Shown here: piece by piece, positions 1 to 63,485 of the stretch | Position numbering within the stretch: position 1 is the first letter of the stretch | Layout of the letters: each line of letters starts with the position of its first letter | IMG/VR virus record: IMGVR_UViG_2531839524_000004 | DNA length: 64,000 nucleotides | Source: a virus | Taxonomy: Duplodnaviria; Heunggongvirae; Uroviricota; Caudoviricetes | Strand: one strand, 5' to 3' | Translations under genes and position numbers: made by a program | The notes under the pieces: generated by a model | Database searches by the model: none | Told to the model about the DNA's origin: nothing | Seen by the model: the letters and a program-made list of their open reading frames with translations, nothing else

Positions 1-310
1 CCTCTGTTATTACAGTGATGACGGTCTGGCGGAGGCGGATAATAATGCTGCGGAAAGAGCGCTTCGTGCAGTCTGTCTCGGAAAGAAAAACTTTATGTTC
101 TTTGGCAGCGATCACGGCGGCGAGCGTGGAGCACTGTTGTACGGGCTGATCGGCACCTGCCGTCTGAACGGTATCGATCCGGAAGCGTATCTGCGCCATA
201 TCCTGAGCGTACTGCCGGAATGGCCTTCCAACCGAGTTGATGAACTCCAGCCATGGAACGTAGTACTCACCAATAAATAAGCGTCAATACGGTGCTCCGT
301 TGACGCTTAC
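1..310 (+). mobile_element. IS66-family insertion sequence, 3' end (element continues upstream of window)
   Basis: Window opens inside a transposase ORF with an IS66 TnpC-like C-terminus; its stop (278-280) is followed by an inverted-repeat hairpin (281-310) consistent with an IS terminus. Confidence 0.7.
2..280 (+). CDS. IS66-family transposase, C-terminal fragment (5' end outside window)
   Basis: Frame open from position 2; translation ...AERALRAVCLGKKNFMFFGSDHGGERGALLYGLIGTCRLNGIDPEAYLRHILSVLPEWP... resembles the conserved IS66 transposase C-terminus (from memory, not searched). Confidence 0.85.
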   Translation, partial: LCYYSDDGLAEADNNAAERALRAVCLGKKNFMFFGSDHGGERGALLYGLIGTCRLNGIDPEAYLRHILSVLPEWPSNRVDELQPWNVVLTNK

Positions 311-568
311 GATAAGTCCAGCCTAATCTACGAAGTTAATGTAGGCGGTAATACATGGGTCGAATGCACAAGAGCTGCATACGTAAGAGCAAAAGACAAG
401 GGTGAATTAACCAGAGTTGTTACCCATCACCCAAATAATGAGCTTAAAGATCACCAGATTAGAGAACTGGTGAACGAGTTGCGGGATATTGCGGTTCAGT
501 ACCACGGAGCGCAGCAATTGCGGGAGAAGATTGCCAGAGCAGTGAACAACTCAGTCCGTAAAAAATAA
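311..568 (+). pseudogene. start-less 3' remnant of a gene apparently interrupted by the IS
   Basis: Same frame stays open from the IS boundary to TAA 566-568 (…YEVNVGGNTWVECTRAAY…QLREKIARAVNNSVRKK) with no start codon; product not recognised. Confidence 0.3.
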
Positions 569-586
569 GCAATAGTACGATAAAGA

Positions 587-611
587 GGCCCCATGCTCTT
601 GATGGGGCCTG
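587..611. terminator. GC-rich hairpin between convergent small ORFs
   Basis: aggccccat-gctcttg-atggggcct, 9-bp stem; lies just 3' of both the + strand remnant and the - strand small peptide ORF. Confidence 0.4.
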
Positions 612-623
612 TAGCAACTAGCG

Positions 624-707
624 TTATGGACGCTGGTTTACGTACTCAATGATCGCTTTGATAATCGCGAACATCGGCGGCACGATTTTGAACAGTAAGT
701 TAACCAT
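624..707 (-). CDS. small hydrophobic peptide, 27 aa (type I toxin-like)
   Basis: Own translation of the minus strand: MVNLLFKIVPPMFAIIKAIIEYVNQRP; GAGG Shine-Dalgarno about 9 nt upstream; below the 60-aa cut-off of the ORF track. Confidence 0.3.
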   Translation of the reverse strand: MVNLLFKIVPPMFAIIKAIIEYVNQRP

Positions 708-949
708 AACAGGCCTCACTTAGTGTTATCGCGCCTAGCTGCAAATACCTTTGGGCTTGCCTTTGCAGTTGCAATATCTGTAGTCGCCAGATACTTACGG
801 CACGATTTCGAGTTAAGGTAAGGTTTTAGAGTCACCAAAAACCTGGACTTAAATCTTCTTTGAGAACAACGATGTTTAGTAAATGGTCATTATTACCTGG
901 TATGACCACTCAACGTTTCTTGATGAATCCAGTACATTCGGTTAATCTT

Positions 950-1038
950 AATTCAGTCGCCAGATACTTATGGCTCAGGAACAGAGCCGCAAACTCTGTT
1001 TCCTTTTAAAAAGCCCAGCCTAGTCAACTGGGCTTTTT
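950..1038 (+). ncRNA. candidate small RNA ending in an intrinsic terminator (antitoxin-like); 5' end not defined
   Basis: Hairpin agcccag-cctagtcaa-ctgggct (1013-1035) followed by TTTTT; region contains a 19-nt repeat (955-973) nearly identical to 782-800, which would lie in the 5' UTR of the divergent small-peptide mRNA. Confidence 0.25.
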
Positions 1039-1333
1039 AATGTCTATTTTTAACCCAACATACCCTCAATACTGCAACATCAGTGTCTTGCGAATTAAGA
1101 TAGTGTGAATAGATTTTTCATGCAAGTGCATAAGCCTGTGGATAACTCAGGAAGGAAAAAGTGACTTCTGCGCACTTTAGACCGGACAAGGCGTTCGAAA
1201 AAGTCAATGGGAAGAAAAAATTTGTTAAAAATAACGTTTGTTTGAATTGTATATATTTATGCCTTTCAATAGTTAGCATCTTATTAACATCTTTTTTAAG
1301 AGATAGAGTTCAAAAATATATAGCTTCAATATA

Positions 1334-1353
1334 TACTGTATGTGTATACAGTA
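1334..1353. promoter_or_regulatory. LexA (SOS) box
   Basis: TACTGTATGTGTATACAGTA fits the CTGT-N8-ACAG LexA consensus; sits in an AT-rich promoter 16 bp upstream of the UmuD'-like start. Confidence 0.7.
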
Positions 1354-1369
1354 TTAAGAGGCGAGTATT

Positions 1370-1759
1370 ATGGGCTTCCCTTCTCCTGCGGCGGATTATG
1401 TTGAGAGCCGTATTTCTCTTGATCAGCAGATAATTAGACATCCTTCAGCGACCTACTTCATGAGGGCAGCTGATAGTCATCATCGTGAGGGAATATTACA
1501 GGGGGCATTGCTGGTGGTCGATTCCTCACTTACCCCGGTTGATGGTTCTCTGCTTGTATGCGCTCTGGATGGGGAATATCGCGTAAAAAGATACCGGAAG
1601 TACCCACGTCAGCATCTGGAGGATTTAAGAACCGGTAAGAAGGAAGCATTGCCAAAGGATGACGATGGATGCACGGGCAGCAATGCCGTGTTTGGTGTGA
1701 TCACTCACATTATCAACGACGCAAGAAGTGGCGAGTTTGATGATTGTCCCGTGATGTAG
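1370..1759 (+). CDS. UmuD'-like S24 (LexA-type) peptidase-family protein
   Basis: MGFPSPAADYVE...HPSATYF...VFGVITHII resembles UmuD; the ORF begins at the position equivalent to the first residue of processed UmuD' (in-frame stop 4 codons upstream); AAGAGG RBS. Confidence 0.8.
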   Translation: MGFPSPAADYVESRISLDQQIIRHPSATYFMRAADSHHREGILQGALLVVDSSLTPVDGSLLVCALDGEYRVKRYRKYPRQHLEDLRTGKKEALPKDDDGCTGSNAVFGVITHIINDARSGEFDDCPVM

Positions 1760-1771
1760 GAGAACTGATTA

Positions 1772-1795
1772 GGCGGTGCAATGCACCGCCTTTTT
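1772..1795. terminator. intrinsic terminator between the UmuD'-like gene and apbC
   Basis: ggcggtgc-aat-gcaccgcc hairpin followed by TTTTT on the + strand. Confidence 0.6.
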
Positions 1796-1796
1796 A

Positions 1797-2897
1797 TCAC
1801 ACTGCGCGGAATGCGATTTCGCCAGGTATTACTTCACCTTGCCAATACATTTGGGCAGCAACGCGATCTGCGAGGTCACGATAAATAGCTGTAAATTCGC
1901 TATCTGGACGACTAATAACGGTTGGTGTTCCGTTATCCAGATCTTCACGAAGAGAGATATGAAGTGGCATTTGGCCTAACAACTGCGTGTTGTATTTCTC
2001 GGCCAGTTTCTGTGCGCCACCGGTGCCAAAAATTGGCTCGTGATGACCGCAGTTACTGCAAATATGCACACTCATGTTTTCAACGATACCCAGTACCGGC
2101 ACTTCGACTTTTTCGAACATCACAATGCCTTTCTTCGCATCGATCAGCGCGATGTCTTGCGGCGTAGTTACCACAACAGCACCAGTTACAGGAATGTTCT
2201 GCGCCAGCGTCAACTGAATATCACCAGTGCCCGGCGGCATATCGAGAACAAGATAGTCCAGATCAGGCCACAATGTTTCCTGCAACATCTGCATCAGCGC
2301 CTTGCTGGCCATCGGTCCACGCCACACCATTGCATTGTCGTCGGTGACCAGATAACCAATAGAGTTGGTTGCCAGGCCATGAGACATGATAGGTGCCATG
2401 TGAGTACCGTCAGGTGAGGTTGGACGTTGGTTTTCCGCGCCCAGCATGGTTGGAATTGATGGACCATAGATATCGGCATCCAAAATACCAACTTTCGCAC
2501 CTTCAGCAGCCAACGCCAGTGCCAGGTTTACCGCCGTGGAGGATTTACCCACGCCGCCCTTGCCTGAGCTGACGGCGATAATGTTCTTAACGCCATTAAT
2601 GCCTGGTTGGTTTTTGACACGCTTAAGCGTGGCAATGTTGTACGACAGCTTCCAGTCAATAGCCTTTGCGCCAGTGATACGGAGCAGATCACCACTACAT
2701 TGCTCTTTCAGGTCTTCAAAAGGCTTATTCCACACGAAAGGCATGATTAGTTCGACATGCAGTGTGTCATCCATCAACGCAACATGGTGTAACGCTTTAA
2801 GCGTAGTCAGGTTGTGTTTCAGGGTTGGGTGCTGAAAATTAGCCAGCGTACCGGCTACCATTGCTCTCAGGGCATCCGGCGATTTGGACTCGCTCAT
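1797..2897 (-). CDS. apbC: Fe-S cluster carrier ATPase ApbC/Mrp
   Basis: 366-aa ORF with P-loop SGKGGVGKS and C-terminal CSNCGHH motif; near-identical to my recollection of E. coli Mrp; divergent from metG as in E. coli. Confidence 0.95.
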   Translation of the reverse strand: MSESKSPDALRAMVAGTLANFQHPTLKHNLTTLKALHHVALMDDTLHVELIMPFVWNKPFEDLKEQCSGDLLRITGAKAIDWKLSYNIATLKRVKNQPGINGVKNIIAVSSGKGGVGKSSTAVNLALALAAEGAKVGILDADIYGPSIPTMLGAENQRPTSPDGTHMAPIMSHGLATNSIGYLVTDDNAMVWRGPMASKALMQMLQETLWPDLDYLVLDMPPGTGDIQLTLAQNIPVTGAVVVTTPQDIALIDAKKGIVMFEKVEVPVLGIVENMSVHICSNCGHHEPIFGTGGAQKLAEKYNTQLLGQMPLHISLREDLDNGTPTVISRPDSEFTAIYRDLADRVAAQMYWQGEVIPGEIAFRAV

Positions 2898-3054
2898 CCC
2901 GTCTCCTTTATTTTAATTTGCGCAATTGTCGCCTTGTAGTGTACTCCAGCTACGACATTTAATCATTTATGAGAAATGCTGTTATCACATGGCAGACATA
3001 AGGCCATTTTGTTACTATCAAGCCCCTTTTCACTACAAAGAAGTAATGCCTACT

Positions 3055-5088
3055 ATGACCCAAGTCGCGAAGAAAATTCTGGTGACGTGCGCGCTGCCGT
3101 ACGCTAACGGCTCAATCCACCTCGGCCATATGCTGGAGCACATCCAGGCTGATGTCTGGGTTCGTTACCAGCGAATGCGCGGCCACGAGGTTAATTTCAT
3201 CTGTGCCGACGATGCCCACGGTACGCCAATCATGCTGAAAGCACAGCAGCTTGGTATCACACCGGAACAGATGATTGGCGAAATGAGTCAGGAACATCAG
3301 ACTGATTTCGCAGGCTTTAACATCAGCTATGACAACTATCACTCGACGCACAGCGAAGAGAACCGTCAGTTGTCCGAGCTTATCTACACTCGCCTGAAAG
3401 AGAACGGTTTTATTAAAAACCGCACCATCTCTCAGCTGTACGATCCGGAAAAAGGCATGTTCCTGCCGGACCGTTTTGTGAAAGGCACCTGCCCGAAATG
3501 TAAAGCACCGGATCAATACGGCGATAACTGTGAAGTCTGCGGCGCTACTTACAGCCCGACTGAACTGATCGAGCCGAAATCGGTAGTTTCTGGTGCTACG
3601 CCGGTAATGCGTGATTCCGAACACTTCTTCTTTGATCTGCCTTCTTTCAGCGAAATGTTGCAGGCATGGACCCGCAGCGGTGCGTTGCAGGAGCAGGTGG
3701 CAAACAAAATGCAGGAGTGGTTTGAATCTGGCCTGCAACAGTGGGATATCTCCCGCGATGCGCCGTACTTCGGTTTTGAAATTCCGAACGCACCGGGCAA
3801 ATATTTCTACGTCTGGCTGGACGCGCCGATTGGCTACATGGGTTCCTTCAAGAATCTGTGCGACAAACGCGGCGACACTACCAGCTTCGACGAATACTGG
3901 AAGAAAGACTCCACCGCCGAGCTGTACCACTTCATCGGTAAAGATATCGTTTACTTCCACAGCCTGTTCTGGCCTGCCATGCTGGAAGGCAGCAATTTCC
4001 GCAAGCCGACCAACCTGTTTGTTCATGGCTATGTGACGGTGAACGGTGCGAAGATGTCCAAGTCTCGCGGCACCTTTATTAAAGCCAGCACCTGGCTGAA
4101 TCATTTTGACGCTGACAGCCTGCGTTACTACTACACTGCGAAACTCTCTTCGCGCATTGATGATATCGATCTCAACCTGGAGGATTTCGTTCAGCGCGTG
4201 AATGCCGATATCGTGAACAAAGTGGTTAACCTGGCCTCCCGTAATGCAGGCTTTATCAACAAGCGTTTTGACGGCGTGCTGGCAAGCGAACTGGCTGACC
4301 CGCAACTGTACAAAACCTTTACTGATGCTGCTGAAGTGATTGGTGAAGCATGGGAAAGCCGCGAATTTGGTAAAGCGATTCGTGAAATCATGGCGCTGGC
4401 TGATCTGGCTAACCGCTATGTCGATGAACAGGCTCCGTGGGTGGTGGCGAAGCAGGAAGGGCGCGATGCCGATCTGCAGGCGATTTGCTCTATGGGCATT
4501 AACCTGTTCCGCGTGCTGATGACGTACCTGAAACCGGTACTGCCGAAACTGACTGAACGTGCAGAAGCATTCCTGAATACAGAACTGACCTGGGATGGTA
4601 TCCAGCAACCGCTGCTGGGCCATAAAGTGAATCCGTTCAAGGCACTGTATAACCGCATCGACATGAAGCAGGTTGAAGCACTGGTGGAAGCATCCAAAGA
4701 GGAAGTAAAAGCCGCTGCCGCGCCAGTAACTGGCCCACTGGCAGATGATCCGATTCAGGAAACCATCACCTTTGACGACTTCGCCAAAGTTGACCTGCGC
4801 GTGGCTCTGATTGAAAACGCGGAGTTTGTCGAAGGTTCTGACAAACTGCTTCGCCTGACGCTGGATCTCGGTGGCGAAAAACGTAATGTCTTCTCCGGCA
4901 TTCGTTCCGCTTATCCAGATCCACAGGCACTGATTGGTCGTCACACCATTATGGTGGCCAACCTGGCTCCGCGTAAAATGCGCTTCGGTATCTCCGAAGG
5001 CATGGTGATGGCTGCTGGCCCCGGCGGGAAAGATATCTTCCTGTTAAGCCCGGATGCTGGTGCTAAACCAGGCCACCAGGTTAAGTAA
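3055..5088 (+). CDS. metG: methionine--tRNA ligase
   Basis: Class I aaRS motifs ([16 protein letters not shown]) and Zn knuckle CPKC...CEVC; start taken at MTQVAKKIL (3055) rather than the upstream in-frame ATG at 2926. Confidence 0.95.
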
Positions 5089-5108
5089 TTAAGCAACCAT
5101 TCTTCACA

Positions 5109-5136
5109 ATGCCCGGCAATACGCTGGGCATTTTCA
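5109..5136 (+). terminator. metG terminator
   Basis: atgcccggc...gctgggcat hairpin followed by TTTTC, about 20 bp after the metG stop. Confidence 0.5.
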
Positions 5137-5171
5137 TTTAGACACAATCCCTTCTGATTTACACATACCCT

Positions 5172-5186
5172 AAAACAATTTGTTTT
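5172..5186. promoter_or_regulatory. operator-like palindrome AAAACAA-T-TTGTTTT
   Basis: First copy of the recurrent motif; about 65 bp upstream of the first prophage gene (5250). Confidence 0.5.
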
Positions 5187-5221
5187 CTGCCTTTTGTTGA
5201 TTGAGATAATAAACCACATAA

Positions 5222-5237
5222 GAAAACAACTTGTTTT
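5222..5237. promoter_or_regulatory. operator-like palindrome GAAAACAA-C-TTGTTTT
   Basis: Second tandem copy, 13 bp upstream of ATG 5250. Confidence 0.5.
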
Positions 5238-5249
5238 GGAGTGGTTTAA

Positions 5250-5549
5250 ATGTTGAACATTACCCAAGCCTACCAGGTGGCATTGATCAGCTCATCTCAT
5301 ACATCAGAGGAAGATGCTCGCCGATTCATGATCGCAAGCAATGAGCTGGATTGGGTTTCACAAATTGAGTACGGTTGCATTGTCCACGCCGGGTTACAGG
5401 ACGATGACTGGAAAGATGAGTTGCGTCGATATGGTATATCCGAGGGCGCGATTGCGAACATTCAGAAAGTACTTGATGTAGGCTTTGACTCTGTACATTT
5501 TGATTGTGGCGCACCGGTCGTTGAAGGGCTTGAGTGCTGGCAATGGTAA
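5250..5549 (+). CDS. hypothetical protein (first gene of the prophage early region)
   Basis: ORF track, 99 aa, acidic; preceded by two operator-like palindromes. Confidence 0.5.
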   Translation: MLNITQAYQVALISSSHTSEEDARRFMIASNELDWVSQIEYGCIVHAGLQDDDWKDELRRYGISEGAIANIQKVLDVGFDSVHFDCGAPVVEGLECWQW

Positions 5550-5585
5550 TCCGGCAATCGCTTCATACTAGATAACGGAGAATTT

Positions 5586-5771
5586 ATGCTTAAAGAAGAC
5601 TCATATCTACTAAAGGCGCTTGAAATGCGTGGCGTTGAACCTACAGTGAAAAACGCCCACGATATCTACCTTCAGTTTTCACCGGAGCTGAAACGGCTCA
5701 TAAATCAATACGGGGTTAATGACTCAAGTGTTAAAGCGATGATAGATGATGAATTAGACCATCTCATCTAA
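5586..5771 (+). CDS. hypothetical small protein
   Basis: ORF track, 61 aa; GGAG RBS 7 nt upstream. Confidence 0.4.
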   Translation: MLKEDSYLLKALEMRGVEPTVKNAHDIYLQFSPELKRLINQYGVNDSSVKAMIDDELDHLI

Positions 5772-13051: not shown

Positions 13052-13576
13052 TCAAAAAGGCAAAATTCGTTCAACCCAATCGAACAAAACAACTATTTTT
13101 CTACCGTTCTCGACACGTAGTGTAACCTGACAAGCATCTGCGCCTGCTGACACCCCCTCAATTTCACGGCCATCCGCCATGTACACCCTTATAGATTTGT
13201 TTGCTTTGTAGGCTTGGTTGCAAATTGCAAAAAAATCGCGGCGTGATGGCCGATTATCGACATAATCAGGGTGAACTGTTAGTCGACCTTTGAAATCGTG
13301 TGCGATACTGTCAACCACACCTGATTCAATTGTACTAATGCGTTCAAGTGGGAGCCTTATACGATTTTCTTTGTCAAAAGGGGCTGGGCAAAGGTCAACT
13401 TTGTTACGAGATGGCATGAGGCCATAAACGTACATGCAAAACGCCTGGCCATCTTCGAGAGTGACCCTTACAGGAATTTGTTCTCTGCGCCAGAACATCA
13501 GTAGTTTTTCAACGTTAGTGTAATCTCGCGGCCAGAGTTCAGCTTGGATACCGTAGGTAATATCTTTGGTTGTCAT
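13052..13576 (-). CDS. hypothetical protein
   Basis: ORF track gives 13052-13654; start set at the internal Met (MTTKDITYG) to avoid overlap with the upstream lipoprotein gene. Confidence 0.45.
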   Translation of the reverse strand: MTTKDITYGIQAELWPRDYTNVEKLLMFWRREQIPVRVTLEDGQAFCMYVYGLMPSRNKVDLCPAPFDKENRIRLPLERISTIESGVVDSIAHDFKGRLTVHPDYVDNRPSRRDFFAICNQAYKANKSIRVYMADGREIEGVSAGADACQVTLRVENGRKIVVLFDWVERILPF

Positions 13577-13580
13577 GTCA

Positions 13581-14003
13581 TCACAGAGTTGTTGGCAGAA
13601 TGTCGATGTCACCAGAATTGCTGGTGAACACCCTGAACGCTTTTGTGTCTCCATTCTTCAGAGTCGTTTCTCGCTCTTGACGAGCGGGGTTTAGAGCACA
13701 TAAACCTGCACCTTCAAGAGATGCACCCACAATTAATTCTCCGGCATTTAAATGGAAAGTCGCTTTTTCGCCTGTAGCCAGTTTTGCGACAGTTTCGCCG
13801 TTGATGAAAATGGAAGCATCACATCCAGCTCCTACAAAACCTGTGTCTCTCATTACCACCAACGTAGCTGGCGCTGCGCTTTGATACTTGAACACTTTGG
13901 CCTGCGGTGCTGGTTTGGCGTCATGGATTGATATTGGGCGTGATTGGCACGCGGTAAGCATCAACACTGGTAACGTTAGTAGAGGGAGAAGCGAGTATTT
14001 CAT
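13581..14003 (-). CDS. putative lipoprotein
   Basis: ORF track (13581-14045); start at MKYSLLPLLTLPVLMLTAC gives a signal peptide ending in lipobox LTAC. Confidence 0.55.
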   Translation of the reverse strand: MKYSLLPLLTLPVLMLTACQSRPISIHDAKPAPQAKVFKYQSAAPATLVVMRDTGFVGAGCDASIFINGETVAKLATGEKATFHLNAGELIVGASLEGAGLCALNPARQERETTLKNGDTKAFRVFTSNSGDIDILPTTL

Positions 14004-14071
14004 GATAGTTTTAGAACAGAAAGTGAACAGTATGGGAGACTTCATCTTTGTCTCCCTAATTGATAGCGTGA

Positions 14072-14350
14072 TTATTTTAATCTGCTTAATAGCGTTTCGA
14101 GATCTTCCTTTGTCATATTAGAGTTCTCATAGATACGCATGATTTTCTCACGAGTCTTAGCGGAAGCCCCGACAGAAGATATAACCTTGTCAAAGTCGGC
14201 CATTGTCAATTGTTCCAGAATGGTATTTATGACTTCAGCCTTAGACATTTTGATATTTTTTTCTTTTAGTTTCACTTGAAACTTTCCAAGTTTGTCATTG
14301 GCCTTATCAGACAATGCTACCTGACAATAAGTTGTTTTCTTTTCGCTCAT
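14072..14350 (-). CDS. hypothetical protein
   Basis: ORF track, 92 aa; starts 3 nt after the helicase stop. Confidence 0.5.
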   Translation of the reverse strand: MSEKKTTYCQVALSDKANDKLGKFQVKLKEKNIKMSKAEVINTILEQLTMADFDKVISSVGASAKTREKIMRIYENSNMTKEDLETLLSRLK

Positions 14351-18005: not shown

Positions 18006-18892
18006 CGGACATCATCATTAAACGCTACCGCCCTGAAGAGTTTCCGCGTCATCTGGACTTTCTGGAGCGAATGACTGTTACAAAGGGAACTGTAGAGGAC
18101 TGGCACGCTCTTAAGTCGCTTCACTACAAAACAGACGGCAAACCTTTCGCGCCAACTTACTATCGCTGCGAACTTGATGACCGTCTGGTGGGCGTCGTGG
18201 TTATGGCTTACCCGAAACTACTGTTGGCACCTCGCCACCGCATGTTTCCTAAGTTGAAACCAACCACTAATACCACCGTGGCTAACCAGTACTGGGGTCG
18301 GTACGTGAATAACAACTTTGCGGTGATCAGTCGCTCAGTTGTGGATACTCAGTATCGTGGCGTAGGCGTCTCTTATCGAATGATTAACCTGGTTAGCAGG
18401 ATGCATGACCGGCCAATCATTGAGATCCAGTCCTCGATGAGCAAATACAATCCCTTCGCCATGAAAGCAGGGTTTAAGTTCATCCGCCCTGAGCGACCGA
18501 AGAGCTATGAAAGTGCACTGCGTGTATTCCAGCGCCATTTTCGTTCCGACCCGGGTGATAACGAGGCGATCGTCAAAGAGTTGTTCGCAATGAGCGAGTC
18601 TCGTCGTCGCCGTGCACTGCGTGATCTGGTGGCGGACTACCATAAGAACAGTTCCCTGGCAAAAGCTGGGCGGAATCGTGGCACGACGATTCAGGACATT
18701 GCCGACAGTCTGGTGGACGAGGCCAGCATTGTGAAGTTGCTCAAGGACATTCACAACCTGAGCTTTACGTCTCCGTTGTATGGGGTGTATCGAAACCCTG
18801 ACTTTGGTCGTCGACTGCCTGACACGCTGCCACTGCTGGCATTCGACAAACAACCTTTGGATAAACCGTTAGAAATTGCTTTACCGGCATAA
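18002..18892 (+). CDS. hypothetical protein, possible GNAT-type acyltransferase fold
   Basis: 296 aa; motif-A-like QYRGVGVSYRMINLV; assignment is weak; start overlaps upstream stop (ATGA). Confidence 0.4.
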   Translation: MTDIIIKRYRPEEFPRHLDFLERMTVTKGTVEDWHALKSLHYKTDGKPFAPTYYRCELDDRLVGVVVMAYPKLLLAPRHRMFPKLKPTTNTTVANQYWGRYVNNNFAVISRSVVDTQYRGVGVSYRMINLVSRMHDRPIIEIQSSMSKYNPFAMKAGFKFIRPERPKSYESALRVFQRHFRSDPGDNEAIVKELFAMSESRRRRALRDLVADYHKNSSLAKAGRNRGTTIQDIADSLVDEASIVKLLKDIHNLSFTSPLYGVYRNPDFGRRLPDTLPLLAFDKQPLDKPLEIALPA

Positions 18893-18901
18893 GGATTTGC
18901 C

Positions 18902-19168
18902 ATGACGTTAACCGATAAACAAAAGGACATCATCAAAACGCTCAATCTCGGTTATGAGCGAGGTCATCTACTTGATCTGGACGAATTGCTTGAAGTTTTG
19001 CCGTACAAGACAACCAAGCAAAGTATCCAGTTCTCAATTCGCGCTCTGATAAAAAAGGGGCTTGTGGAGAAAGGGCATACGCGCCAACGCAGTGACAATC
19101 GCTATCACCGCCGAACTCTTGGGTTAACCACTTTAGGTCGAGCCAAAGCGAAGTTACTGGTGATGTAA
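18902..19168 (+). CDS. hypothetical small protein, possible winged-helix DNA-binding fold
   Basis: ORF track, 88 aa, basic C-terminus; fold assignment is a guess. Confidence 0.35.
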   Translation: MTLTDKQKDIIKTLNLGYERGHLLDLDELLEVLPYKTTKQSIQFSIRALIKKGLVEKGHTRQRSDNRYHRRTLGLTTLGRAKAKLLVM

Positions 19169-19192
19169 TCGGTCTGGGAGCTTATTTAAAGA

Positions 19193-19249
19193 CCTGCTTC
19201 TGTATATATAAATAATAAGTAACTTATTAAATATATATACGGAAGCAGG
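19193..19249. repeat. 57-bp AT-rich palindromic repeat, copy 1
   Basis: cctgcttctgtatatataaataataagtaacttattaaatatatatacggaagcagg; identical copy at 50746-50802. Confidence 0.8.
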
Positions 19250-19286
19250 CTTAATAAGACATGCCCAGACCTAATTAAACAACCCA

Positions 19287-19301
19287 GAAAACAAGTTGGT
19301 T
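19287..19301. promoter_or_regulatory. operator-like palindrome GAAAACAA-G-TTGGTT
   Basis: First of two copies ahead of the small terminase gene. Confidence 0.45.
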
Positions 19302-19312
19302 AGAAAATGCAG

Positions 19313-19328
19313 TAAACAAGTTGTTTTA
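19313..19328. promoter_or_regulatory. operator-like palindrome TAAACAA-G-TTGTTTTA
   Basis: Second copy, about 40 bp upstream of ATG 19367. Confidence 0.5.
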
Positions 19329-19366
19329 GAGCGCATGGACGCGCTCTGTGTGTTTTAGAGGGATCT

Positions 19367-19999
19367 ATGACGGTCGAAAAAGACGAGGTAAAAACTCGCC
19401 TGACACCAGCGGAGTGGGCCGAAGCTGAAGCCAAATGGACGTCAGGCGAATATACACTCTCAAAGCTGGAGGAAGAGTACGGCATTCGTCGTGAAACACT
19501 CTCCAGACATTTCAAAAAGCGAGGATTAGAGAAAGGCGCGGACTCTGTTGGGAAGATGGTTCGTGAGTCTCTTAAATCTGACGCAGAGCTTCGCGCTAAA
19601 GCCCGTGCGGAAAAGATAGAAGAACGTCGTACACGTTATGACGGCTGGGCGTATGCGTTGGGGCAGATGGTGATGGTCGAAGTCACTACGGCCAAACGTG
19701 AGGGTAAGCCTTTAGGGGCGATTGAGGATTCTCTCAAGAGCTTACAGAGAGCCAGTAATACCCTTGCAAAATGCTTTGAAGTTTCGTCCAAAGCATTGGG
19801 CATGGATCATGCGGAAAATGACGAGGAAGAAATTCCGAACCTGGTATTTGGTGAGCTTACGCCTTCCCAGGTGGCGAAATTACGTCAGGAAGACGACGAG
19901 CCTGAAATCATCGATGACGAATTGCTTGAGACGTTGGAAGAAGAAGCTCTAAGCGAATTTGATGCGACAGATGATGGAAGTGAAGGGGAGGACGAATAA
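19367..19999 (+). CDS. terminase small subunit (putative)
   Basis: 210 aa directly upstream of the large terminase; N-terminal HTH-like region and acidic tail; call by position. Confidence 0.6.
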   Translation: MTVEKDEVKTRLTPAEWAEAEAKWTSGEYTLSKLEEEYGIRRETLSRHFKKRGLEKGADSVGKMVRESLKSDAELRAKARAEKIEERRTRYDGWAYALGQMVMVEVTTAKREGKPLGAIEDSLKSLQRASNTLAKCFEVSSKALGMDHAENDEEEIPNLVFGELTPSQVAKLRQEDDEPEIIDDELLETLEEEALSEFDATDDGSEGEDE

Positions 20000-21255
20000 T
20001 GGCAATCCCGTCCTCGCTCAGTCTTGTGCAACTGCATTCTGGACAGATGAAAGTCTTCCAGTCTCCGCATCGATTTAAAGTTGTTTGTGCTGGTCGACGC
20101 TGGGGAAAATCCCGGTTGTCGATCTCCACTATTATTCGTGCGGCGGCAAAGGAAAAAAAGCAAAGGGTCTGGTATGTCGCTCCTACTTACCAGATGGCTC
20201 GCCAGATTTTGTGGGACGATCTACAGGAAGTTCTGCCTCGTAAGTGGGTTAGGAAAAAGAACGACACCACGATGACAATCGTGTTGAAGAACGGTTCGGA
20301 GATCGCCCTCAAAGGTGCTGATAAGCCTGACACTCTGCGCGGCGTAGCGTTGCATTTTGTAGTGCTTGATGAATTTCAGGATATGAAGGCTGACACCTGG
20401 TACAAGGTGTTACGACCTACTCTTTCATCGACACGCGGCGGTGCACTGATCATTGGTACGCCAAAAGGTTTCTCGGAATTTCACAAACTGTGGACTATAG
20501 GCCAGAACGTAGAGCTGCAAAGAAAGGGACAGTGGAAGAGCTGGCAGTTTGTAACTGCCGATTCTCCGTTTGTGCCTACGGCGGAAATTGAAGCTGCTAA
20601 GAACGATATGGACCCGAAATCGTTCGCTCAGGAGTACCTGGCGAGCTTTGAGAACATGTCCGGGCGCGTTTACTACCCGTTCGATCGTAACGTGCATGTA
20701 AAACCGCTTCAGTTCAACCCTCGGTTGCCTATATGGGTAGGGCAGGACTTCAACATTGACCCGATGTCTTCAGTAATTTTGCAACCTCAGCCAAATGGTG
20801 AGCTATGGGCAATTGATGAATTGGTGCTCTTTTCCTCTAACACGGCAGAGGTTTGTGATGAGCTTGAGAGACGCTTCTGGCGCTGGAAATCACAGATAAC
20901 GGTATTTCCAGATCCGGCAGGTGCTTATCGCCAACATGCTCGCGGGGAGTCTGACGTCGACATATTCAAAGAGAAGGGATTCTTACGTGTCGATTATTCG
21001 AAAAAGCCCCCGCCAATTGCGGATCGTGTTAATGCTGTTAACCGAATGCTGATGACCGCATCTGGAGATATCCGGTTGTATATCGATCCGAAGTGCAAGC
21101 ATTTGATTGATTCACTGGAAAAAGTCATCTACAAGCCTGGAACACGAGATATGGATAAGACAGGTGGCATTGAGCATAGTGCAGACGCATTGGGCTATCC
21201 AGTACATCGTAGGTATCCAGTCAAAAACCGTGTTATTCTTGGTGGTTCTCGATAG
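19999..21255 (+). CDS. terminase large subunit
   Basis: Walker A VCAGRRWGKS, Walker B HFVVLDEF, C-terminal nuclease-like acidic residues; 418 aa. Confidence 0.9.
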   Translation: MAIPSSLSLVQLHSGQMKVFQSPHRFKVVCAGRRWGKSRLSISTIIRAAAKEKKQRVWYVAPTYQMARQILWDDLQEVLPRKWVRKKNDTTMTIVLKNGSEIALKGADKPDTLRGVALHFVVLDEFQDMKADTWYKVLRPTLSSTRGGALIIGTPKGFSEFHKLWTIGQNVELQRKGQWKSWQFVTADSPFVPTAEIEAAKNDMDPKSFAQEYLASFENMSGRVYYPFDRNVHVKPLQFNPRLPIWVGQDFNIDPMSSVILQPQPNGELWAIDELVLFSSNTAEVCDELERRFWRWKSQITVFPDPAGAYRQHARGESDVDIFKEKGFLRVDYSKKPPPIADRVNAVNRMLMTASGDIRLYIDPKCKHLIDSLEKVIYKPGTRDMDKTGGIEHSADALGYPVHRRYPVKNRVILGGSR

Positions 21256-21281
21256 GTAAGTAATTATCTAAGGTTATTCAA

Positions 21282-22856
21282 ATGGAATTGAACGACAAAC
21301 AAATTAAGGATCTGGTGGCGCGACGCCACCCGGAATACGAAAAGAAAAAAGAACATTGGGACTTCCTCGCCAGCACTTACGCTGGCGGGCGTGGTTGGTT
21401 TACAGACAATATCTTTCGTTACTTTAAAGAGGGAGATCAGGAGTTTAAGGAGCGAGTTGAGCGTGCTTATCGCTTCAACCACACTCGTGAGGTGGTAAAC
21501 CTCATCAACAAATATCTCTTTAAAGAAGACATTCATAGAAATATCGAAGAGGCACCAGAGCAGATCCGCAATTTCTGGAAACGTGCGACTCGCCAGAATG
21601 CCTCTATTGACTCATTTATGGCCGCTATTGATTTGCAGTCGTCTATTTACGGTCGCATATGGGTTGTTGTCGATAGCACGATGAGTGGTGATGTTGAGTC
21701 AGTAGCTGACGAGAAAAAGAAAGATGCTCGCGCCTACGCCTACTGGATTTCACCTCAGCAAATGCTGGATGTGGCATGGGACGACGACGGGAATATGTTG
21801 TGGGCGTTAATTGTGGAAGTCGCTCGTGATGACGCAGATCCTTTTACTTCTACAGGTCAGGAATACCAACGTTATCGTCTGTGGACACAAAACGAGTGGT
21901 ATCTGTTCCGTGAGGAAGTGAAGAAGGGCGCTGGTGGAGCAGGTCGCCGTCAGGCAAAAGTTATTTTAGAGGATAGCGGTGAGCATAATCTCGGCGTAGT
22001 TCCTGTGTTTCCTGTTGATTGTATTGGAGAAAGTGAATCACCGTATTTCAGCCCATCGTTGATCGATGATATCGCTTATCTTGATCGTGCGGTTGCAAAC
22101 TATCTGTCAAACCTTGATGCCATTATTCAGGATCAGACATTTAGCCAGTTGGCTATACCGGTACAGTCGCTTTTACCTGGTGATGAAAACCACACTAAAG
22201 TGCTTGAAATGGGCACAAAGCGAGTCTTCACCTACGATTCTGAAGGTGGAAACCAGCCGTTTTATCTGTCACCAGACCCGAAACAAGCTCAGATGATCAT
22301 CACTACGATTAAGACGGTGATTAACGAAATCTACCATTCAGTTGGTGTAGCTGGTGAGCGAACGAAGCAGGACAACGCACAGGGAATCGATAATTCATCT
22401 GGTGCCGCAAAAATGTATGACTTCCAGCGTGTAAATAGCTTGCTTGTCACAAAAGCAGAGCGTCTGGAAAGGGCTGAACGCCAAATCATGCTACTGGTTG
22501 CGAAATGGATGGGGGTAGATCTGGACGAAGACCACTCTTTAATTGCGTATCCAGAAAGTTTCGATATTCGTGGCCTTACTGATGAATTTTCTGTTGCCGA
22601 GAAACTGTCATTACTTCAGGCACCGGACTCTGTACGTCGTCACCAGATGGAAATGCTTATTGAGAAGATTTTCCCGAACATTACTGAGGCGATGAAAAAG
22701 GAATTTGATAAAGATCTCTTGAATTTTCCTCCAAAAAATGATCTAAATACCCTTGAAAATAAGTCAGTACTTACTTATGATCGTGGTGCAGCCCAAGAAA
22801 GCGGGCAAGATCAACCCCGAGGGAATGGGGACTCATCTACTCAAGAGAACGAGTGA
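21282..22856 (+). CDS. portal protein (putative)
   Basis: 524 aa immediately after the large terminase; call by size and synteny. Confidence 0.7.
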   Translation: MELNDKQIKDLVARRHPEYEKKKEHWDFLASTYAGGRGWFTDNIFRYFKEGDQEFKERVERAYRFNHTREVVNLINKYLFKEDIHRNIEEAPEQIRNFWKRATRQNASIDSFMAAIDLQSSIYGRIWVVVDSTMSGDVESVADEKKKDARAYAYWISPQQMLDVAWDDDGNMLWALIVEVARDDADPFTSTGQEYQRYRLWTQNEWYLFREEVKKGAGGAGRRQAKVILEDSGEHNLGVVPVFPVDCIGESESPYFSPSLIDDIAYLDRAVANYLSNLDAIIQDQTFSQLAIPVQSLLPGDENHTKVLEMGTKRVFTYDSEGGNQPFYLSPDPKQAQMIITTIKTVINEIYHSVGVAGERTKQDNAQGIDNSSGAAKMYDFQRVNSLLVTKAERLERAERQIMLLVAKWMGVDLDEDHSLIAYPESFDIRGLTDEFSVAEKLSLLQAPDSVRRHQMEMLIEKIFPNITEAMKKEFDKDLLNFPPKNDLNTLENKSVLTYDRGAAQESGQDQPRGNGDSSTQENE

Positions 22857-62282: not shown

Positions 62283-62381
62283 TACTGAAAATGAGTTACT
62301 TTGACTCTTGATCCTATAAGAATCTATGCCTAATATACTGTTTACTTATACAGTGAATCGGCGTAACTCGGTGATTGTCAT

Positions 62382-63485
62382 ATGAAAAATAGCTTTGACA
62401 GAGCACGCGCTGCGGAGAACACCTCAAAAGAGGCGATTGAGTATCTCGAAAGAGCATCTCAAATGCAGGCCGTTATGATCTCGCAGGTTAGCAATGATAT
62501 GAGATTCTCGGACGCATTCATGTTATTTACTCGCTTATCTCTGCTGATAACAAGACGTCGGCCGGAGATCGCTGTTCATTGTATTTTGATACATGTTTTG
62601 CCGCACATTGCTGATGTAAAAGTAAGTGACATTAATAGGTTCATGGTGAACCAACTGGTCAACCCCCTAATACTGGATGGCAAAATTGTTATGGGCCGCC
62701 GCGTTTTCTCTCTGATGAAGCAGTTCCTTAGCTGGTGTGCCTTCCAGGGGATGATCGACGTGTCACCGTTAAACGATATGTCACTAAACAAAGTTGCCGG
62801 TGGCGCAAAGCCCACGCCTCGCGAGCGGAAGCTAACCGACGCAGAGGTATGGGTGTTCTGGAATATATGGGACTACTTCAATGTGTGCGCTGGTACAAAA
62901 TGGGCGGCCAGGCTATGTCTTGTATCCGCAAGACGACCTGACGAAGTACTGCGGGCTAAAAAAAGTGAGTTCAACCTCCAGCGTGGGGTTTGGAATCAAG
63001 GCAAGAGAAACAAATCAGCCCGTGAGCATTCTCTGCCTTTAAGCACATTAATGCGCACATGCATTGAAGAGTTATTCGAATATGGTAAAGGCAGCCAGTG
63101 GCTTGTGCCTTCGAATAAAAAAATCGGGAAAGATCTTCCGATGTCTAAAGTGGCAATAGCCCAGGCATTACGCCGTATCCTGGAACGACCAGAACTGATG
63201 GAGCTTGAGCCATTTACACCACGAGATTTGCGTCGTACTGCGCGTAGTTACTTCCCAGCATTAGGCATAAGCCAGGAGGTATCACGTAAAATCATGAACC
63301 ACAGTCTTGAGGGGATAGATCGGGTCTACGACCGGCACGATTATATGGACGAGATGCGAGACGCCTTAGAAAGTTTCTCGACGTACATCGCATCAATCGT
63401 AGAGCAACCGGATTTAGACGAAATTGACCACAAATTCAAGGGAGATCGTCTATCGACAGAGCTTATTCGTGTAAATTTTTCATAG
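62382..63485 (+). CDS. tyrosine-type site-specific recombinase (integrase)
   Basis: 367 aa; C-terminal catalytic-domain residues in expected order (...TPRDLRRTARS...HS...VYDRHDY...). Confidence 0.85.
   Translation: MKNSFDRARAAENTSKEAIEYLERASQMQAVMISQVSNDMRFSDAFMLFTRLSLLITRRRPEIAVHCILIHVLPHIADVKVSDINRFMVNQLVNPLILDGKIVMGRRVFSLMKQFLSWCAFQGMIDVSPLNDMSLNKVAGGAKPTPRERKLTDAEVWVFWNIWDYFNVCAGTKWAARLCLVSARRPDEVLRAKKSEFNLQRGVWNQGKRNKSAREHSLPLSTLMRTCIEELFEYGKGSQWLVPSNKKIGKDLPMSKVAIAQALRRILERPELMELEPFTPRDLRRTARSYFPALGISQEVSRKIMNHSLEGIDRVYDRHDYMDEMRDALESFSTYIASIVEQPDLDEIDHKFKGDRLSTELIRVNFS

Follow-up and report, generated by a model that had tools for sequence, protein, structure and literature searches.

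A fundamental question raised by this locus is how does a UmuD-type gene function when it begins at the residue that becomes the N-terminus after self-cleavage, lies beneath an SOS-type operator and has no polymerase subunit gene beside it? The locus sits near one end of a 64-kb stretch of DNA, the whole of which is referred to here as the window. The open reading frame at 1370–1759 is humD, the phage gene for a ready-made UmuD' equivalent, and on the overall evidence it very probably provides a LexA-controlled analogue of processed UmuD' that serves the UmuC protein of the host. The gene is already known and ordinary; it has been known since the 1990s and has its own NCBIfam model, and the P1 copy was reportedly characterised in 1999 by McLenigan et al. 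As a discovery the window humD counts for little, and its value is that of a calibration case in which the right biology was inferred from sequence alone. The first-pass annotation, made from the raw letters, read the biology of the gene correctly but did not recognise it as humD and missed its phage-plasmid context. What goes beyond routine annotation is the travel of humD and its LexA box as a cassette, a drift between Ser and Thr at the nucleophile position alongside a conserved tail, and a candidate module in the spacer upstream.

Identity of the 129-residue product

The humD coding sequence (1370–1759, plus strand) specifies 129 residues starting MGFPSPAADYVE, which make up a UmuD'-type S24 domain without an N-terminal arm and end in the C-terminal tail SGEFDDCPVM. 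Against the NCBIfam equivalog NF051876 ('HumD family translesion DNA polymerase') the product scores 221.7 bits, where the cutoff is 120, and the match covers positions 1–129 of 129. It also matches Pfam Peptidase_S24, is assigned in PHROGs as a UmuD-like protein, and is 99% identical to RefSeq WP_000506720.1, which is annotated HumD; a translation in 'Escherichia phage CMS-2020a' matches it at 100% identity. The model for full-length UmuD/MucA-type proteins (NF007621) gives 88 bits, under its cutoff of 110, and the LexA model gives 28.5 bits (cutoff 110.95) through model positions 90–166 only, which represent the C-terminal domain. The best matches among solved structures are UmuD' (1UMU, E 1.7e-23) and the UmuD chain of Pol V. 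An AlphaFold2 model derived from 66 family members had a mean pLDDT of 43 and was too poor for a fold search; for this reason the fold assignment rests on the sequence matches to UmuD' structures.

The reading frame had been described as starting exactly at the GFPSPAADYVE segment that follows the autocleavage site of full-length UmuD, and the alignments bear this out. Gly2 of HumD aligns with Gly25 of UmuD, both in the UmuD' crystal chains and in K-12 UmuD, and BLASTP against K-12 UmuD gives 43% identity over UmuD residues 25–139. In the alignments with UmuD and UmuD', a comparison that had been suggested as a check, HumD has neither the N-terminal arm nor the Cys24-Gly25 cleavage site, and its Ser36 and Lys73 align with Ser60 and Lys97 of UmuD. 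The further suggestion that such a product might act as a standalone S24-domain regulator did not hold up: Pfam and NCBIfam profile searches detected no N-terminal DNA-binding domain in HumD, with only the S24 part matching, and no evidence in support of a regulator was obtained.

Comparison with named systems places the gene more precisely. E. coli UmuD' (residues 25–139; PDB 1UMU, 1AY9 and 1I4V) shares the S24 fold with HumD at the sequence level and has an equivalent N-terminus, and HumD keeps Ser and Lys at the positions of the UmuD' catalytic dyad. However, UmuD' arises by cleavage of a 139-residue precursor encoded in an operon with umuC, whereas HumD is translated directly, and HumD differs further in having ADSH in place of GDSM and about ten additional C-terminal residues. 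HumD of phage P1 (P1_gp103) likewise has 129 residues, is 92% identical to the window protein and has the MGFPSP start and the identical C-terminal tail; its gene, too, has a LexA box about 20 nt 5' of the ATG, lacks umuC and is carried by a phage-plasmid. The two genes differ in their surroundings, since P1 humD is flanked by divergent lxr upstream and phd-doc downstream on a P1-like carrier, whereas the window gene has an 800-bp spacer without long open reading frames upstream, and a terminator and a captured apbC-metG segment downstream, on an SSU5-like carrier. The UmuD-like genes of N15 (gp26), phiKO2 (gp23), HK140 and HK639 are also of the short HumD type, with products of 127–129 residues at 65–72% identity, and are found on temperate phages or linear phage-plasmids; they are more distant and occupy other genomic neighbourhoods. 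The plasmid- or ICE-borne proteins MucA, RumA, ImpA and SamA resemble HumD as mobile, SOS-regulated Pol V-type accessory subunits (PMC7092418, PMC8460599), but they are full-length and dependent on cleavage, and each shares an operon with a polymerase subunit gene of its own (mucB, rumB and others). HumD itself has been described as an already-activated short UmuD (PMC7092418).

Control of humD and conservation of the short form

How would expression of this gene be controlled? A near-consensus LexA box over the promoter had been noted from the sequence, and such a box, TACTGTATGTGTATACAGTA, is present at 1334–1353 and covers part of the -10 hexamer in a promoter-like site. The box has perfect 8-nt inverted arms (TACTGTAT and ATACAGTA) and two mismatches, both central, against the 20-nt LexA consensus TACTGTATATATATACAGTA. 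Nowhere else in the 64 kb does a sequence come within three mismatches of that consensus, and 100 dinucleotide-preserving shuffles of the window yielded no such match; the looser pattern CTGT-N8-ACAG occurs three times in the window against 0.84 expected. The candidate sigma-70 promoter, located by a consensus scan at 1309..1337 on the plus strand, comprises a -35 element TTCAAA (1309–1314), a 17-nt spacer and a -10 element TATACT (1332–1337), and scores 9 of 12 against the consensus. Both hexamers are retained in seven relatives of 90–99% identity, and one relative has TTTAAA. Since the box falls on this promoter-like site, the operator would overlap the -10 hexamer together with the probable start site. 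Further downstream, a Shine-Dalgarno sequence AAGAGG (1356–1361) is found 8 nt 5' of the ATG, and the stretch between box and ATG is identical in seven relatives, except that in one of them (L005) AAGA ends in G instead of A. The gene had also been said to be followed directly by a terminator and the convergent apbC, and this arrangement is as described: a terminator scan identified an intrinsic terminator at 1771..1797 (plus strand), with a hairpin at 1771–1791 that has a 9-bp stem (seven G-C pairs) and a 3-nt loop and is followed by a T-run, placed between the stop codon of humD and that of apbC. The latter gene, which encodes a ParA/NUBPL-type P-loop protein, occupies 2897..1797 on the minus strand, and metG comes next.

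An alternative hypothesis is that the palindrome does not function as a LexA operator, humD being either constitutive or controlled by a phage repressor. Two observations could be read in this way, namely that some distant HumD loci have no box within 120 nt and that the P1 GenBank record predicts a humD promoter far upstream. However, the perfect arms, the two mismatches to consensus and the empty shuffles described above argue against a chance palindrome, as do the overlap with the -10 hexamer and the pattern of conservation. In every P1-like and SSU5-like locus surveyed, a CTGT-N8-ACAG box lies 18–21 nt 5' of the ATG, and more than a dozen central sequences occur among these loci, which indicates that the arms are kept while the core is free to vary. 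Moreover, a LexA binding site is annotated in P1 itself, 20 nt 5' of humD in the GenBank record, and humD is described as being under LexA regulation (PMC9603915). The absence of a working operator is thus very improbable. Among the more distant humD genes, in chromosomes or prophages, approximately half have no LexA box within 120 nt, and SOS control is for this reason a trait of the phage-plasmid clade and not a universal one in the HumD family.

A second question is whether the short reading frame is simply damage, that is, a local truncation or pseudogene in which a umuD gene recently lost its 5' end and its umuC partner in the present strain, with the nearby insertion sequence as one conceivable cause. 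An in-frame TAA stop does stand just ahead of the gene, at 1355–1357 (plus strand), where it closes the humD frame; four codons (GAG GCG AGT ATT) then lead to the ATG at 1370, as the first-pass annotation had stated. In addition, an IS66-family element ends about 1 kb upstream of humD. This right end spans window positions 1–310, comprising the transposase C-terminus and a terminal inverted repeat that ends ...GACGCTTAC at 310, and the element interrupts the phage gene phrog_21749, of which the last 85 codons are left (311–568). The insertion is absent from otherwise identical plasmids that carry an identical humD region. Because it lies about 1 kb away, in an unrelated gene, and is missing from those plasmids, the element is irrelevant to how humD arrived. 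The earlier suggestion that the adjoining element marks acquired DNA was therefore right as to its presence but has no bearing on humD, which is native phage cargo.

The distribution of the short form argues against truncation. A protein search with HumD returned 564 relatives at E ≤ 1e-10, of which the best 120, as cluster representatives, were examined. Nearly all of these 120 are 126–130 residues long, and they come from Escherichia, Citrobacter, Klebsiella, Enterobacter, Salmonella, Kluyvera and Trabulsiella. An MGFPSP-type start is found in 107 of the 120, the first two residues differing in a few; the motif is internal in seven longer proteins, and the other six, which were partly inspected, fall outside the motif pattern. 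Could the longer homologues be forms with an intact arm? Seven of them (136–223 residues) were inspected and this possibility was rejected: in five, the residues that precede an internal MGFPSP-type start are not UmuD sequence, so that these N-terminal extensions are unrelated to the UmuD arm, and the remaining two differ at the C-terminus or internally. The extra N-terminal sequence in several of the five is read-through of the LexA box, and these extensions point to miscalled start codons.

A survey of loci, 71 from species-representative genomes and 80 from IMG/VR, gave the same picture. In all of the P1-like and SSU5-like loci the ATG leads directly into GFPSP or a form of it with one residue changed, and no UmuD-type arm was found in more than 100 related loci that start MGFPSP or a one-residue variant. 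A longer reading frame with an intact arm in related strains, which had been named in advance as the sign of a local truncation, appeared neither among the inspected homologues nor in the surveyed loci, and close relatives have no 5' extension that encodes an arm. The 129-residue architecture recurs in more than 100 loci of P1-like, SSU5-like, N15-like and lambdoid type across many enterobacterial genera, and the curated equivalog model has exactly 129 positions. Estimates of dN/dS range from 0.046 to 0.058, with a value of 0.046 against P1 humD at a dS of 0.83. Such a ratio of about 0.05 relative to P1 humD indicates that the short form is a conserved design and not a local truncation, and the truncation hypothesis retains almost no credence.

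How then did the short form originate? When the window, P1 and K-12 umuD are aligned, the LexA box, the Shine-Dalgarno region and the ATG line up in all three, and a single clean 69-nt gap in humD stands opposite umuD codons 2–24, after which the alignment resumes at GGC TTC CCT TCT CCT (G-F-P-S-P). We infer from this alignment that humD is probably a umuD-type gene that lost codons 2–24 in frame and retained its LexA box, ribosome-binding site and ATG. A tblastn search with UmuD does reach upstream of the humD ATG, matching UmuD residues 11–24 to window positions 1313–1369, and a vestigial arm was considered on this basis. It was rejected, since the stretch reads through the TAA stop and the AT-rich LexA box, and the match is taken as spurious.

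The surveyed loci also show recurrent downstream contexts, humD-phd-doc in P1-like elements and humD-apbC in SSU5-like ones, and one SSU5-like locus (L080) has the P1 lxr gene upstream of humD. These contexts, together with the lxr gene in L080, indicate that the LexA box and humD move as a cassette between unrelated phage-plasmid lineages. Just upstream of the cassette, window positions 1118–1307 contain a DnaA-box-like sequence, TGTGGATAA (approximately 1136–1144), and are homologous to a P1 segment annotated with two predicted DnaA boxes. In some P1-like contigs (L110, 2304–2545) the homologous stretch terminates in a half LexA box, together with the Shine-Dalgarno sequence of humD and a humD 5' end that has suffered a deletion. 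A junction of this kind looks like a recombination scar and suggests that the humD operator region may be a recombination hotspot.

The carrier element and a proposed partner supplied by the host

Window positions 311–1800 are 99.7% identical to a set of 106–120-kb E. coli plasmids that share the gene order humD, apbC (reverse) and metG, and positions 311–64000 are colinear with plasmid NZ_CP195946.1 at 97–98%. The structural-gene block matches Escherichia phages CMS-2020a and Cyrano at 98–99% identity and Salmonella phage SSU5 at 82%, and the window also encodes terminase, a DnaB-like helicase, primase, ligase and integrase. Based on the plasmid colinearity, the phage structural block and this gene content, the carrier is not a chromosome but an SSU5-like phage-plasmid, whose genes include those for terminase, portal, capsid and tail. 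SSU5-like phage-plasmids are a well-described group (PMC7969092, PMC3999498). Among complete E. coli genomes, a match to window positions 300–1800 that contains humD is found in 806 of 5,426.

The segment downstream of humD has a different character. The apbC and metG genes span 1797–5088, and over 1801–5089 this block matches the chromosomal locus of E. coli at approximately 90% identity; it recurs at 224 plasmid places in complete E. coli genomes. Its homology begins exactly at the apbC stop and ends at the metG stop, and both captured genes are full-length, metG encoding a methionyl-tRNA synthetase of 677 residues. The block has the look of housekeeping DNA that SSU5-like elements took from a host, and humD, not apbC, is the native phage cargo. 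Since homology to the E. coli chromosome begins only at 1801, the terminator hairpin of humD lies outside the captured segment.

Outside the region covered by the window, NZ_CP195946.1 (L196) encodes its own RecA and DnaE (Pol III alpha), at 13103–14176 and 18209–21727, respectively, along with NrdAB, thymidylate synthase, DfrA51, ligase, primase and helicase; with this gene content, HumD sits in an element that is itself well supplied with genes for DNA metabolism. A second LexA-like box, TACTGTTTACTTATACAGTG, is located at 62335–62354 of the window, with four mismatches to the consensus and the CTGT-N8-ACAG pattern intact. It lies 27 nt 5' of the ATG of a tyrosine recombinase/integrase (ORF 62382–63485), and this recombinase may be SOS-regulated.

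Which polymerase subunit, then, would HumD serve? As had been remarked of the immediate neighbourhood, no umuC gene accompanies humD: tblastn with E. coli UmuC returned no match at E ≤ 10 anywhere in the 64-kb window and none in the complete plasmid NZ_CP195946.1, which is 97–98% identical, and no UmuC homologue lies within 4 kb of any enterobacterial humD locus surveyed. The sole surveyed locus with an adjacent umuC is L048, at 4001–5595 of a Chitinophagaceae MAG contig (JAKFCE010000020.1). Its UmuD'-like reading frame has 117 residues, is 41% identical, starts MGFPSPAA and is preceded by a stop three codons upstream; the UmuC homologue begins just ahead of the UmuD'-like stop codon (tblastn match from 4354). 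This arrangement would be a pre-processed UmuD' with its cognate polymerase in Bacteroidota.

We hypothesize that in an uninduced lysogen or plasmid carrier the host LexA protein would occupy the operator over the -10 hexamer and likely start site and keep humD off. DNA damage would then generate RecA*, LexA would cleave itself and humD would be transcribed. As HumD begins where cleavage creates the N-terminus of UmuD', it would be made directly in the active form and would skip the slow RecA*-dependent cleavage that delays mutagenic translesion synthesis. By analogy with the 92%-identical P1 protein, a HumD dimer could combine with host UmuC and RecA* into a Pol V-like translesion polymerase, and such a complex would help to replicate damaged phage-plasmid or host DNA. 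Having no umuC itself, the element would rely on the host copy. LexA binding, induction and partnership with UmuC are properties that we infer for the window allele from its P1 counterpart.

What is known of that counterpart agrees with this model. McLenigan et al. 1999 (J Bacteriol 181:7005) are said to have found that a recA430 lexA(Def) strain regains mutagenesis with P1 HumD and that a delta-umuDC recA718 lexA(Def) strain survives UV better with it. HumD also reportedly forms dimers and binds both UmuC and RecA filaments, according to the same study. The P1 GenBank record states that the protein 'functionally complements E. coli UmuD''. Functional replacement of UmuD' is known only for P1 HumD, and by extension the window allele would be expected to do the same. 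The proposal made from the raw sequence, that such a product would not need RecA-stimulated self-cleavage and could act on host translesion synthesis, thus coincides with what has been published for the P1 protein. Lytic growth of P1 does not require humD, as judged by a CRISPRi screen (PMC10695390).

A further hypothesis is that HumD works mainly without UmuC, either on the replication and recombination proteins of the element or as a decoy or checkpoint factor that heterodimerises with host UmuD, perhaps by means of its family-specific C-terminal tail. The products of umuD bind Pol III subunits, and UmuD/UmuD' heterodimers form. Moreover, the related complete plasmid encodes recA and dnaE, the surveyed enterobacterial humD loci are all without umuC, and the tail EFDDCPV[MI], which is not in UmuD, is conserved in almost all family members. 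However, the reported ability of the P1 protein to complement UmuD' and bind UmuC speaks against this hypothesis, and nothing positive links HumD to the RecA or DnaE of the phage. The P1, N15 and lambdoid carriers of humD have no dnaE of their own, and for this reason a role linked to DnaE or RecA cannot explain the whole HumD family. A mainly UmuC-independent role is therefore unlikely, and service to host UmuC remains the preferred reading.

The nucleophile position, the C-terminal tail and the upstream spacer

The HumD family was further surveyed residue by residue in 121 sequences, consisting of the window HumD and the 120 cluster representatives. The position equivalent to UmuD Ser60 (Ser36 in HumD) is occupied by Ser in 75 of the 121, by Thr in 44 and by Ala in 2, and the GDSM motif is replaced across the set by x-[ST]-H-[FYH]-R, represented by ADSH in the window protein. 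Lys73, the equivalent of UmuD Lys97, is retained in 118 of the 121. The C-terminal extension [SG]-[GA]-E-F-D-D-C-P-V-[MI] (HumD residues 120–129) is nearly invariant in the same sequences and absent from UmuD. This pattern fits relaxed selection on the chemistry of self-cleavage combined with a conserved, HumD-specific surface. Given the degenerate GDSM motif and the conserved tail, HumD may do something that UmuD' does not. One could imagine, for example, that on SSU5-like elements the EFDDCPV[MI] tail couples the replisome of the element, or the RecA filament, to damage tolerance, or that it titrates host UmuD; if so, HumD would be more than a simple substitute for UmuD'. A partner or role of this kind beyond host UmuC is a quite doubtful prospect.

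The 800-bp spacer upstream of humD (570–1330) carries no RefSeq annotation, yet positions 770–1040 are nearly invariant among relatives that differ elsewhere by up to 10%. Within it lies a candidate small RNA at 955–1041 (plus strand), 87 nt long, which has a fold z-score of -5.6, ends in a terminator and is preceded by TTGATG-17-TAATCT. In Rfam, positions 960–1041 give a full-length match to AgrB that is sub-threshold, at 27.6 bits against a gathering score of 40; AgrB is the antisense RNA of the SOS toxin dinQ. The first 16 nt of the candidate RNA (955–970) are the sequence AGTCGCCAGATACTTA, and a second copy of this repeat is found at 781–796. As the repeat is present in both places, a minus-strand transcript through 781–796 would be complementary to the 5' end of the RNA, and 16–22 nt at that end are complementary to the putative toxin mRNA. 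The corresponding small reading frame, at 707..624 on the minus strand, encodes a 27-residue hydrophobic peptide, MVNLLFKIVPPMFAIIKAIIEYVNQRP, with a Shine-Dalgarno sequence GAGG and a terminator on its 3' side, and the substitutions that it shows in relatives are conservative. The module, at 624–1041 in the window, is unannotated in 116 E. coli records. Searches of NCBIfam, Pfam and PHROGs gave no significant family match for the small peptides, and blastn detected no real homology between the spacer and the E. coli dinQ-agrAB locus.

Is this module tied to the SOS control of humD? A minus-strand promoter-like site overlaps the humD LexA box, and the possibility was considered that the box also controls a divergent dinQ-like toxin, much as the P1 box is shared with lxr. 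The link is probably incidental, since a diverged copy of the module, with the peptide MVSLLLKILPPLVAIITTIIDYINKR and a paralogue, is present on plasmid L157 without a LexA box and without humD nearby, and the module is on this evidence autonomous from humD. The RNA of L157 matches the OrzO-P model at 34.2 bits against 60, likewise sub-threshold. Both repeat copies of L157 are changed in parallel, from ACTTA to ACATT, and in 37 IMG/VR contigs the same two repeat alleles occur and are always matched within a locus. Taken from its sequence features, the spacer looks like it holds a candidate toxin-antitoxin module of type I, comparable to zorO/orzO or dinQ/agrB.
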